Below, piece after piece: positions 18,183-23,524 of a stretch of 64,000 bases of DNA. The stretch lies in NCBI RefSeq assembly GCF_017348835.2, contig NZ_CP071375.1. The stretch is one strand, 5' to 3'. Within the stretch, counting starts at the first letter, position 1; every line of letters starts with the position of its first letter. Under the pieces are notes generated by a model. The model ran no database searches. It saw only the letters and a list, made by a program, of their open reading frames with translations, and was not told the DNA's origin. A program made the translations under genes and the position numbers. Source of the DNA: Escherichia coli. GTDB lineage: Bacteria; Pseudomonadota; Gammaproteobacteria; Enterobacterales; Enterobacteriaceae.

Positions 18183-19220
18183 ATGGGGCAACAAAAGCAG
18201 CGTAATCGACGTTGGGTTCTGGCCTCGCGTCCGCATGGCGCACCGGTTCCGGAGAATTTCCGTCTTGAAGAAGATGATGTCGCCACACCGGGTGAAGGAC
18301 AGGTGTTACTGCGCACAGTTTATTTGTCCCTGGACCCGTATATGCGTGGACGTATGAGCGATGAGCCATCTTATTCACCGCCGGTTGATATTGGCGGCGT
18401 GATGGTCGGCGGTACGGTGAGCCGTGTCGTGGAGTCGAATCATCCTGATTATCAGCCTGGCGACTGGGTGCTGGGCTACAGTGGATGGCAGGACTATGAC
18501 ATATCCAGTGGTGATGATCTTGTGAAACTTGGCGATCATCCGCAAAATCCATCGTGGTCGCTGGGTGTGCTAGGGATGCCAGGCTTTACCGCTTATATGG
18601 GCCTACTGGATATCGGTCAACCTAAAGAGGGCGAAACATTGGTGGTTGCTGCGGCGACAGGTCCTGTGGGAGCAACGGTAGGGCAAATCGGCAAACTTAA
18701 AGGTTGCAGGGTGGTGGGGGTAGCCGGTGGCGCGGAAAAATGCCGCCATGCTACCGAGATGTTAGGCTTCGATGTTTGTCTTGACCATCACGCGGATGAT
18801 TTTGCCGATCAACTGGCGAAAGCGTGCCCAAAAGGTATTGATATCTATTATGAAAACGTGGGCGGTAAGGTATTCGATGCGGTGCTACCGTTACTTAATA
18901 CATCTGCGCGCATTCCCGTTTGCGGCTTAGTGAGCAGCTATAACGCTACAGAGCTACCACCCGGTCCGGATCGTTTACCCCTGTTGATGGCAACGGTGCT
19001 GAAAAAACGTATTCGCTTGCAAGGGTTTATTATCGCTCAGGATTATGGTCACCGCATCCATGAGTTTCAGAAGGAGATGGGGCAATGGGTGAAAGAGGAT
19101 AAAATCCACTACCGAGAAGAAATTACTGACGGTTTAGAGAATGCGCCACAGACGTTTATCGGCCTGCTGAAGGGTAAAAACTTCGGCAAAGTGGTGATCC
19201 GCGTGGCGGGTGATGATTAA
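18183..19220 (+). CDS. curA: CurA (YncB) NADPH-dependent curcumin/dihydrocurcumin reductase (MDR family)
   Basis: Start at ATG 18183 preceded by AGGAGAG; medium-chain dehydrogenase fold. Confidence 0.88.
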   Translation: MGQQKQRNRRWVLASRPHGAPVPENFRLEEDDVATPGEGQVLLRTVYLSLDPYMRGRMSDEPSYSPPVDIGGVMVGGTVSRVVESNHPDYQPGDWVLGYSGWQDYDISSGDDLVKLGDHPQNPSWSLGVLGMPGFTAYMGLLDIGQPKEGETLVVAAATGPVGATVGQIGKLKGCRVVGVAGGAEKCRHATEMLGFDVCLDHHADDFADQLAKACPKGIDIYYENVGGKVFDAVLPLLNTSARIPVCGLVSSYNATELPPGPDRLPLLMATVLKKRIRLQGFIIAQDYGHRIHEFQKEMGQWVKEDKIHYREEITDGLENAPQTFIGLLKGKNFGKVVIRVAGDD

Positions 19221-20118: not shown

Positions 20119-22221
20119 TTACTCAAATCGCCATGCGATATTCACGCCGACACCATAATTTCGCCCGGGCGCAGGTTCGTAATATCGCCCGTTTGACTCA
20201 TTGACAATGACAGAGCCAACGTATTCTTTATCGAATAAATTATCGACACGACCAAATAAATCCACAGTTAAATTGTGGTAATTGTATTTATACCCGGTGA
20301 ATAAGCCGACGAGAGTATAAGACGGCGCTTTGGCCGTATTTTCATCATCTGCCATAATATCGCCCATATAACGCGCTTCCGTGCCTGCATACCAACCATC
20401 TTCCGGTACATAACCTATCGACGCAAAGCCCATATTACGGGCGATCCCTGGCATCCGATTACCGTTACAATCCTGTTCGTTGCAAACATTGCTGCGATAG
20501 GTCGCATCAAGCCAGGTCCAGGACGCGTTTACGCGAAAATCTCCCGCGAAACGTTGATCCCATGCCAGTTCAGCGCCTTGACGACGGGTCTTTCCGGCAT
20601 TTTTGTAAGTCGTACGCCCACCGCTACTGCTATCGACAACAATTTCATCATCGGTGTCGGTCTGGAACAATGCGAGACTAAGCAGCCCATCACCAATACG
20701 CGTTTTACTGCCGATCTCAATTGTATCGTTGGTGGATGGTTTTAAACCAAAGTTCATACCGCTTTGCCCATCAGCGCGATAAGACAGCTCATTAATCGTC
20801 GGCGTTTCAAAACCACGCCCGGCTGCCAGATAGATATTCCAGGCATCGGTCATTGCATATTTTAACGATCCGGCTGGTAGCCATTTGTGGTAACTGGCAT
20901 CACCGCTGTCATCGCCGTTACCCGGAGTAATGTAATGGTCGTTGGAATCAAACCACACGGAGCTGTAGCGCACGCCAGCATCCAGCGACAGTTTTTCGCT
21001 CAGCTGCCACTGCGTCTGTAAATAGGGATCGATGTTCCACATCAGATTGCGTTCGTCGCGACGCAACTCACCTTTTTGCCCGTACTCCGGCATGCCGCTA
21101 TTCAGGCGGAAGTTATTGTAGCCCTTGCGGTTTTCACTCATGTTTTCGTAGTTCAGGCCGGTAGTGAACGTGACCGGAACGCCCAGTTCACCACGGTGTG
21201 TCCAGCGGCTGTCTATTCCCTGGTAATGGCGTTGCAGGGTAATCACGCCGCCCGCATGTGACGGGTTAAGTTGTGGTGCCATGGGTATTGACTGGTACTG
21301 GGTCGTTTCTCGCTCTCCGGCATACATCATCACACTCATATCATCCCGCGAACTCAGGCTACGTTCATAGCGCAACCCAGCCTGAGTTTGCTTGATGGTT
21401 TTTCGCGTGTCGTACTGTTCTGCACGAGGCGCTTGTTGTGGATTCGCCTTCCATTCTGCTTTGGTTAGCCCACCTGGGTCATCTGCTTTGATATCCACAC
21501 TATTGAAAATCAGGCTTAATTTGCTGGCTTCATCAATGCGTACGCCCAGTTTGGCATTGGCTAAATTTTTCTGTGCGCCACTATGGTCACGATATCCGTG
21601 GGTCGTAAAACGCGTGGTTGAGACGGTGTAATCAACATCGCCGGGCTGTGTGCCGTCTCCCGTTGCGCCCGTTGCTTTCAGCCCATAGCGCCAGCTGCCA
21701 AAACTGCCGTAGTAACTACTGGCTTCAATGGTTGGTGGCTGTTGTCCGGTCTGGGTGGTGACATTCATTACACCGCCAGACGCGTTGCCATACAGGGCAG
21801 AAAAGGGGCCACGCAGCACTTCCACATTTTGCACACTGCTTAAATCGATGTTGGATGTTTGCCCTTGCCCGTCGGGCATGGTGGCGGGAATACCGTCCAC
21901 ATACAGGCGAATACCGCGAATTCCGTAAGTGGAACGGGAGCCAAATCCGCGAATCGACAGCTGTAAATCTTGCGCATAGTTCTGCCGGTTTTGTACCTGC
22001 AAACCAGGCACGCCGGTCAGTGATTCGGACAAGTTAATGCGCGGTGTTGCCAGGCGCATCTCCTCGCCATCCTCCACGCTTACTGCTGCAGGGGTATCCA
22101 GTTCTGAAACCACCTGCGGCGCGGCACTGACAATCATGGTCTGTTCATCAGCGGCAAAAACAACGGGGGAAAGGACAAGCAGGGCGGGCAAAACGGTCTG
22201 TCGAACAAAAACAATCTTCAT
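20119..22221 (-). CDS. yncD: YncD TonB-dependent outer-membrane receptor
   Basis: 700-aa ORF with signal peptide and C-terminal terminal aromatic (…AWRFE) beta-barrel end. Confidence 0.92.
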   Translation of the reverse strand: MKIVFVRQTVLPALLVLSPVVFAADEQTMIVSAAPQVVSELDTPAAVSVEDGEEMRLATPRINLSESLTGVPGLQVQNRQNYAQDLQLSIRGFGSRSTYGIRGIRLYVDGIPATMPDGQGQTSNIDLSSVQNVEVLRGPFSALYGNASGGVMNVTTQTGQQPPTIEASSYYGSFGSWRYGLKATGATGDGTQPGDVDYTVSTTRFTTHGYRDHSGAQKNLANAKLGVRIDEASKLSLIFNSVDIKADDPGGLTKAEWKANPQQAPRAEQYDTRKTIKQTQAGLRYERSLSSRDDMSVMMYAGERETTQYQSIPMAPQLNPSHAGGVITLQRHYQGIDSRWTHRGELGVPVTFTTGLNYENMSENRKGYNNFRLNSGMPEYGQKGELRRDERNLMWNIDPYLQTQWQLSEKLSLDAGVRYSSVWFDSNDHYITPGNGDDSGDASYHKWLPAGSLKYAMTDAWNIYLAAGRGFETPTINELSYRADGQSGMNFGLKPSTNDTIEIGSKTRIGDGLLSLALFQTDTDDEIVVDSSSGGRTTYKNAGKTRRQGAELAWDQRFAGDFRVNASWTWLDATYRSNVCNEQDCNGNRMPGIARNMGFASIGYVPEDGWYAGTEARYMGDIMADDENTAKAPSYTLVGLFTGYKYNYHNLTVDLFGRVDNLFDKEYVGSVIVNESNGRYYEPAPGRNYGVGVNIAWRFE

Positions 22222-22356
22222 GAAAAAAGCCAGGTTAAGAATGGGAAAACACCGTCATGGTAATAAAATTGTAAATTTATGGAAAACGAAACGGCACTAT
22301 ACGTTAATTAATTGAGAAAATTGTAGTCGTAACGGCAAGAAATGCTCCACATTTGA

Positions 22357-22376
22357 GAAAATAATGATTACCATTC
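22357..22376. promoter_or_regulatory. candidate Fur box in the yncD-yncE divergent intergenic region
   Basis: gaaaATAATGATtAcCATTc resembles the Fur consensus GATAATGATAATCATTATC. Confidence 0.4.
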
Positions 22377-22462
22377 CCATTTATAACAAGAGCGTAACGA
22401 TGATTACGCTTAGCGAAGCATTGTGAAGCAGCAAAAATATCGGTTCATCAAAGGGAGTCGTC

Positions 22463-23524
22463 ATGCATTTACGTCATCTGTTTTCATCGCGCCTGCGTGG
22501 TTCATTACTGTTAGGTTCATTGCTTGTTGCTTCATCATTCAGTACACAGGCCGCAGAAGAAATGCTGCGTAAAGCGGTAGGTAAAGGTGCCTACGAAATG
22601 GCTTATAGCCAGCAAGAAAACGCGCTGTGGCTCGCCACTTCGCAAAGCCGCAAACTGGATAAAGGTGGCGTGGTTTATCGTCTTGATCCGGTCACTCTGG
22701 AAGTTACGCAGGCGATCCACAACGATCTCAAGCCGTTTGGTGTCACCATCAATAACACGACTCAGACGTTGTGGTTTGGTAACACCGTAAACAGCGCGGT
22801 CACGGCGATAGATGCCAAAACGGGCGAAGTGAAAGGCCGTCTGGTGCTGGATGATCGTAAGCGCACGGAAGAGGTGCGCCCGCTGCAACCGCGTGAGCTG
22901 GTAGCTGATGATGCCACGAACACCGTTTACATCAGTGGTATTGGTAAAGAGAGCGTGATTTGGGTCGTTGATGGCGAGAATATCAAACTGAAAACCGCCA
23001 TCCAGAACACCGGGAAAATGAGTACCGGTCTGGCGCTGGATAGCAAAGGCAAACGTCTTTACACCACTAACGCTGACGGCGAAATGATTACCATCGACAC
23101 CGCCGACAATAAAATCCTCAGCCGTAAAAAGCTGCTGGATGACGGCAAAGAGCACTTCTTTATCAACATTAGCCTTGATACCGCCAGGCAGCGTGCATTT
23201 ATCACCGATTCTAAAGCCGCAGAAGTGTTAGTGGTCGATACCCGTAATGGCAATATTCTGGCGAAGGTTGCGGCACCGGAATCACTGGCTGTGCTGTTTA
23301 ACCCCGCGCGTAATGAAGCCTACGTAACGCATCGTCAGGCAGGTAAAGTCAGTGTGATTGACGCGAAAAGCTATAAAGTGGTGAAAACGTTCGATACGCC
23401 GACTCATCCAAACAGCCTGGCGCTGTCTGCCGATGGCAAAACGCTGTATGTCAGTGTGAAACAAAAATCCACTAAACAGCAGGAAGCTACCCAGCCAGAC
23501 GATGTGATTCGTATTGCGCTGTAA
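22463..23524 (+). CDS. yncE: YncE periplasmic beta-propeller protein
   Basis: 353-aa ORF with signal peptide. Confidence 0.9.
   Translation: MHLRHLFSSRLRGSLLLGSLLVASSFSTQAAEEMLRKAVGKGAYEMAYSQQENALWLATSQSRKLDKGGVVYRLDPVTLEVTQAIHNDLKPFGVTINNTTQTLWFGNTVNSAVTAIDAKTGEVKGRLVLDDRKRTEEVRPLQPRELVADDATNTVYISGIGKESVIWVVDGENIKLKTAIQNTGKMSTGLALDSKGKRLYTTNADGEMITIDTADNKILSRKKLLDDGKEHFFINISLDTARQRAFITDSKAAEVLVVDTRNGNILAKVAAPESLAVLFNPARNEAYVTHRQAGKVSVIDAKSYKVVKTFDTPTHPNSLALSADGKTLYVSVKQKSTKQQEATQPDDVIRIAL

Follow-up and report, generated by a model that had tools for sequence, protein, structure and literature searches.

A Fur operator at the yncE promoter of Escherichia coli and its relation to the divergent receptor gene pqqU

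The pqqU-yncE Locus

The DNA described here is a 64-kb stretch (hereafter the window, meaning the whole stretch that was analysed), which over its yncD-yncE part is 100% identical to strain PE164 and belongs to the species Escherichia coli. Two divergent genes, pqqU (formerly yncD) and yncE, are separated by a spacer of 241 bp (22222..22462) that is 98% identical to that of K-12 MG1655, all five differences lying on the yncD side. The features of the locus are collected in Table 1. YncE is a vaccine antigen. The initial annotation of this DNA had pointed to a Fur-box-like string of 20 nt, gaaaataatgattaccattc, between the two genes. This placement is exact, as the string occupies precisely 22357..22376 inside the pqqU-yncE spacer, and the full site extends a further 5 bp to the right, to 22381.

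Table 1. Genes and sequence elements of the pqqU-yncE locus; positions are counted from the first nucleotide of the window.
Feature	Position	Strand	Basis
pqqU (formerly yncD) coding sequence, divergent TonB-dependent PQQ importer	20119..22221	minus	ORF, annotation, Pfam Plug and TonB_dep_Rec barrel
Conserved block CTCCAC(A/T)TT holding the -35-like TCCACA (22346..22351)	22345..22353	plus	Conservation of at least 90% in most columns; putative -35 role
Second, overlapping Fur register GAAAATAATGATTACCATT, 6 bp upstream of the main box, approximately the interval of the initial annotation	22357..22375	none	8.7 bits
Main Fur box AATGATTACCATTCCCATT, 19 bp, near-palindromic, 7-1-7 type	22363..22381	none	19.0 bits, de novo matrix
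Probable -10 hexamer TACCAT (TACTAT in most other genera), within the Fur box	22369..22374	plus	Predicted
yncE transcript 5' end as in published reporters	22379..22383	plus	Reporter designs of two laboratories, not a mapped 5' end
Hairpin of 7 bp with a 6-nt loop, AGCGTAA-cgatga-TTACGCT	22391..22410 (22391-22397 with 22404-22410)	plus	Covariation, RNAalifold
Conserved motif GAAGCATTGTGAAGCAG, complementary to the RyhB core UUGCUCACAUUGCUUC	22415..22431	plus	Duplex test against RyhB nt 31-70
yncE coding sequence, periplasmic 7-bladed beta-propeller, regulated gene	22463..23524	plus	ORF, annotation, Pfam YNCE-like beta-propeller

Similarity to the Fur Motif

When compared with the classical 19-bp Fur consensus (GATAATGATAATCATTATC), the site has its best register at 22360..22378, where 14/19 positions agree in the forward and 15/19 in the reverse orientation. 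It is the sole 15/19 site in the window. A search of the window for the classical consensus with three or fewer mismatches returned nothing, the yncE site having four to five. The classical consensus is a weak criterion at this level of agreement: approximately 1.3 positions with at least 14/19 matches are expected per random 64 kb, and 14/19 is reached by 1.9% of random 241-bp spacers of the same composition.

A Fur matrix was therefore not taken from the consensus; it was obtained by an unseeded EM motif search in the upstream regions of 21 established MG1655 Fur promoters (fepA-fes, fepD-entS, fepB-entC, fhuA, fiu, cirA, fecI, fecA, exbB, tonB, fhuE, fhuF, sufA, ryhB, feoA, sodA, mntH, nrdH, bfd, yddA and efeU), yncE being excluded from the training. 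All good EM starts led to AATGATAATcATTATCATT, an 18-bit motif that equals the textbook Fur box. The matrix is specific, since 29 of the 30 matches of at least 15 bits in 163 kb of MG1655 control sequence fall at known Fur promoters. Scoring with a position-weight matrix, which had been suggested as a check of the Fur likeness, placed the main box at the top of the window with 19.0 bits, the next best match reaching 14.95 bits. The chance of a 19.0-bit match is approximately 2e-7 per position, which corresponds to 0.013 expected matches per 64 kb, or to 6e-4 per spacer at the composition of the spacer. Ranked among the leave-one-out scores of the 21 known Fur promoters, which range from 5.8 to 24.4 bits, the yncE box is number 11 of 22. 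The 6-bp offset between the main box and the second register (Table 1) is also found between high-scoring registers in several of the known Fur promoters. Beyond this array the matrix scan revealed no further Fur-like site in the pqqU-yncE spacer.

The next-best matches of the window (14.3-15.0 bits) are all below the level of proven sites. One of them (55188-55206) is situated in the bdm-osmC spacer and another (18837-18855) within curA, and two (44843-44861 and 44961-44979) immediately precede a frameshifted ompC-like porin gene beside yddG. The adhP gene (51596-52606, minus strand) is a published Fur ChIP target; its upstream spacer (52607-52739) contains none of the 15 best matrix matches of the window, all of which score at least 8.6 bits.

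Conservation of the Box

Scanning one genome per species gave 80 yncE loci, which represent more than 20 enterobacterial genera; 78 of these loci had enough upstream sequence. In every one of the 78 orthologous loci the matrix finds a box of at least 12 bits; 64 reach at least 15 bits, and many score 22.6-24.7 bits. The top-scoring site is located between -94 and -107 relative to the yncE ATG in 72 loci and at -55/-59 in three loci with a shorter leader. In three Kluyvera loci the top match is elsewhere, yet the alignment has the box in its usual place. The commonest form of the box, AATGATTACTATTCTCATT, scores 22.6 bits, which is above the score of the E. coli box itself. At the level of the whole spacer (79 sequences) the box is the most conserved block, with a mean column conservation of 0.94 against 0.6-0.7 in the flanks, and only the ribosome-binding region of yncE is comparably conserved. 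Among 76 aligned sequences the core of the box, TAATGATT..ATTC.CA, does not vary.

Within E. coli the box is nearly uniform. It is identical in K-12, and the locus is present in 5,411 of the 5,426 complete E. coli genomes. The 32 nt centred on the box are identical in 5,013 records and carry one difference in 397 (approximately 7%). The one variant examined (strain PNUSAE014970) has T in place of A at 22358, a position that belongs to the weaker upstream register but not to the main 19-mer.

The site is not evolutionarily tied to the receptor gene. In nine Citrobacter-type loci (L009, L010, L012, L013, L016, L017, L019, L024 and L076) yncD is absent within 3 kb and a remnant of it could not be detected either, and yet the box is found 97-100 bp upstream of the yncE ATG, where it is still preceded by the conserved block. 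In L012, the only one of these loci checked for its neighbours, a curA-like oxidoreductase gene on the same strand as yncE is followed directly by the yncE promoter, and mcbR is also missing.

Probable Architecture of the yncE Promoter

Two published reporters define the 5' end of the yncE transcript used here: the insert of pXG10-yncE starts with ATTTATAACAAG, that is at 22379, and the construct of Wang et al., described as carrying the whole 5' UTR, begins at -80 from the ATG, that is at 22383. Relative to these 5' ends the box spans approximately -20 to +3. The probable -10 hexamer TACCAT is situated 5-9 nt upstream of them and 17 bp downstream of TCCACA, the putative -35 element, with four of six matches in each hexamer. 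The block CTCCAC(A/T)TT around TCCACA is near-invariant across genera, more than would be expected of a 4/6 -35 element, and could possibly be the site of an unidentified activator.

A generic sigma-70 scan did not call the yncE promoter. Its sole call was a minus-strand TTCACA-16-AATCAT in the yncE leader; as a yncD promoter this was dismissed, the -10 being AGTCAT in most genera. TATAAC (22382-22387) was also considered as the -10 of yncE and dismissed. Its conservation is 0.61, it lies downstream of the 22379 reporter end (the 22383 end falls inside it), and it would put the start within the conserved hairpin. As this hairpin begins at 22391, the start needs to be upstream of that position, which rules TATAAC out. 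RegulonDB gives a MarA site at -41.5, where by eye no convincing conserved marbox was seen; Reg-Seq likewise did not detect this site.

Fur Occupancy and Expression of yncE

The Fur box of yncE and its control by Fur have been known since 2003, with repeated confirmation by ChIP and RNA-seq since then. Strong repression of the gene by Fur and iron and the presence of a Fur box in its promoter have been stated with credit to McHugh et al. (2003), and the gene is also described as Fur-bound upstream. It is a member of both Fur iModulons, belongs to the direct Fur regulon of MG1655 and CFT073, and is upregulated 16-fold under iron limitation. RegulonDB reportedly has no annotated Fur site at yncE. 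Expression in a fur mutant, a further check suggested with the initial annotation, can be read from the fur-deletion RNA-seq of the Fur pan-regulon dataset (PMC10164565): the log2FC of yncE is 3.10 in MG1655 (8.6-fold) and 8.14 in W3110 (approximately 280-fold), and it is also positive in the other strains listed there.

Fur ChIP, the third of these checks, is likewise available in published form. The ChIP-exo peak P44 (1521238-1521250 in the older MG1655 numbering, iron-replete) is the yncE intergenic peak after re-alignment of the table rows (PMC10164565). It corresponds to 22370-22382 of the window and thus lies on the box, with an overlap of 12 bp and centres 4 bp apart. Coordinate conversion was checked on 10 control peaks, which fall within 28 bp of matrix sites. 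No Fur-matrix match above 3 bits was found beneath a second published MG1655 ChIP-exo peak, P43, in yncD (22076-22112, approximately 110-145 bp into the coding sequence), which carries the label yncD intragenic after correction of the table rows. Taken together, the matrix score, conservation, promoter overlap, ChIP-exo peak and derepression in the fur deletion bear out that the site is a genuine Fur box and that yncE is regulated by Fur, as the initial annotation had suggested.

In the copy of Dataset 2 (PMC10164565, MG1655 sheet) that was read, the gene labels and the peak coordinates are out of step by one row from P37 on: P37 is at tonB (labelled acnA), P45 at adhP and P46/47 at yddA, and the yncE label stands on a peak within yncD. 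Reusing this table by gene name would give wrong coordinates.

The Divergent Receptor Gene

A second claim had been that the site fits iron-responsive control of the TonB-dependent receptor. According to Grinter and Lithgow and to Hantke and Friz, YncD/PqqU is neither iron- nor Fur-regulated; it imports PQQ and gives no growth on iron sources. Fur is not discussed in the P. aeruginosa PqqU preprint or in the Sci Adv PqqU paper. In the fur-deletion RNA-seq (PMC10164565) yncD is unchanged in MG1655 (log2FC 0.12, not significant) and increased in W3110 (2.95) and in strain 042 (2.02). The claim thus fails for MG1655 and does not suit the PQQ-importer function, and a modest, strain-dependent effect of Fur on yncD is conceivable. 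None of the sequence differences examined explains why the strains differ. In MG1655, pqqU is probably not under control of this box.

These data bear on the suggestion that Fur acts on both yncE and yncD/pqqU from this box as a common bidirectional operator, in analogy to fepA-fes or fepB-entC. Such an operator would agree with the derepression of yncD in W3110 and 042, with the W3110 intergenic ChIP-exo peak, which has been assigned to both genes (PMC10164565), and with the array being the sole Fur-like site of the spacer. We nevertheless consider it unlikely, given the unchanged expression of yncD in MG1655, the two reports of no Fur or iron regulation and the role of PqqU as a PQQ importer without effect on iron status. 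The position of the box also speaks against it: the box is 142-160 bp away from the yncD ATG, overlaps the core promoter of yncE, and keeps its distance from yncE in the nine loci that have no yncD. Finally, yncD rises approximately 4- to 8-fold against approximately 280-fold for yncE in W3110, the only strain for which both values were read. As the rise of yncD is small beside that of yncE, strong divergent transcription could account for it indirectly.

The yncE Leader and RyhB

Downstream of the box the transcribed leader contains a conserved hairpin (Table 1). Across the alignment 94.6% of the cells are paired, compared with 34-53% in controls with the partner displaced by 1-3 columns. Compensatory changes occur at 7/7 pairs, and the covariation score was reached by 0 of 500 shuffles. 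RNAalifold independently gave the same helix, and the local dG is -8.8 kcal/mol. G-U pairs exceed A-C mismatches when the plus strand is read, which indicates that it is the yncE transcript that folds. Conservation extends to the loop, C(C/G)ATGA. An Rfam search of the leader returned no family. The hairpin may serve as a 5' stabiliser. The minimum free energy fold of the 117-nt leader as a whole is no better than that of shuffled sequences (z 0.65).

By eye, the ATG of the hairpin loop opens a frame of eight codons (22400-22426, ATG ATT ACG CTT AGC GAA GCA TTG TGA). As this frame is lost in the Enterobacter and Klebsiella leaders and has no obvious ribosome-binding site, it is probably untranslated.

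Activation of yncE by the small RNA RyhB has been published on the basis of Ribo-seq, lacZ fusions, RIL-seq and MAPS, and a fusion with a constitutive promoter and the 5' UTR alone still responds to RyhB. In the literature examined we found no published model of the RyhB-yncE pairing. Unrestricted folding of the duplex between RyhB and the leader was uninformative (p approximately 0.06, with the hybrid spread across both RNAs) and a test restricted to the RyhB core was used instead. With the duplex confined to RyhB nt 31-70, the best pairing takes in the motif GAAGCATTGTGAAGCAG in nearly every one of 76 species. Compared with shuffled leaders, the RyhB-core duplex gave p of approximately 0.04 in E. 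coli and p of 0-0.02 in eight further species, so that it stood out in 9/9 of those tested. Complementarity of this kind makes GAAGCATTGTGAAGCAG a candidate pairing site for the RyhB activation of yncE. Leader folding revealed no structure sequestering the ribosome-binding site that pairing would have to relieve.

A Model for yncE Regulation

The sequence between the two genes is best explained as the Fur operator of the yncE promoter, and for the model of Fur occlusion as a whole we estimate a probability of approximately 0.93. The match to the motif, its conservation, the overlap with the ChIP-exo peak and with the reporter 5' ends, and the Fur-dependent expression of yncE are its observed components. 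The exact -10/-35 assignment, the geometry of two dimers and the occlusion itself are the components that we infer. When iron is sufficient, Fe2+-Fur would be bound to the array 22357..22381, probably as two dimers in registers 6 bp apart, the main box being the high-affinity one. The array would then cover both the -10 hexamer and the start at approximately 22379-22383, so that RNA polymerase would be excluded and yncE kept off. When iron becomes scarce, Fur would leave and yncE would be transcribed. RyhB, which is itself repressed by Fur, would add a post-transcriptional boost via the yncE leader, and the whole would form a coherent feed-forward loop.

It is highly improbable that the conservation reflects only the core promoter of yncE or the site of another regulator, with an incidental likeness to Fur in an AT-rich spacer: the box does overlap the probable -10, so that promoter function alone would conserve a part of it, and the match to the classical consensus is one that random spacers can equal, but the invariant positions span at least 17 bp and track the Fur matrix rather than only a hexamer, the box is nearer to the Fur consensus in many genera than in E. 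coli, and the ChIP-exo peak and the strong fur-dependent expression coincide with it.

The operator of yncE could have a wider role, and here we are considerably more tentative. It would require pqqU/yncD to be gated by the same single Fur array in W3110 and 042, though not in MG1655, and, separately, the leader hairpin and the RyhB-complementary motif to form an undescribed cis-element for the RyhB activation of yncE. We regard this combined proposal as rather doubtful. If true, the import of PQQ would be coupled to iron limitation in a strain-dependent manner, either directly or via the derepressed divergent promoter of yncE.

The value of the present check lies mainly in attribution: the site belongs to yncE, and its neighbour PqqU is not iron-regulated in K-12 MG1655. 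In addition, the hairpin, the RyhB-complementary motif and the strain-dependent response of yncD offer handles on the way in which yncE is wired into the iron-starvation response.

Comparison with Known Fur Systems

The Fur boxes of ryhB, sodA, fecI, fhuF, cirA, exbB, fhuA and other iron-uptake promoters are built on the same 19-bp near-palindrome with registers 6 bp apart, and among them the score of the yncE box is mid-range. Like these canonical boxes, that of yncE is near or on the promoter core and is occupied by Fur when iron is replete, and its gene is derepressed in a fur mutant. It differs from them in the gene that it controls, as YncE is a periplasmic beta-propeller and not a recognised iron transporter. 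In E. coli the right half-site of the yncE box is degenerate (ATTCCCATT versus ATTATCATT), whereas it is stronger in most other genera.

With cirA the yncE gene shares the combination of Fur-repressed transcription and post-transcriptional activation by RyhB; shiA is another gene activated by RyhB. In contrast to cirA and shiA, the RyhB-complementary motif of yncE is situated approximately 20-30 nt upstream of the ribosome-binding site, and no obvious inhibitory structure was found for it to open.

Like the pqqU-yncE spacer, those of fepA-fes, fepD-entS and fepB-entC contain a Fur box and separate two divergent genes, one of them coding for a TonB-dependent receptor. In these three systems, however, Fur peaks are seen for both units and each spacer has several high-scoring boxes, while the pqqU-yncE spacer carries a single array, placed on the yncE promoter, and its receptor gene is Fur-unresponsive in MG1655.
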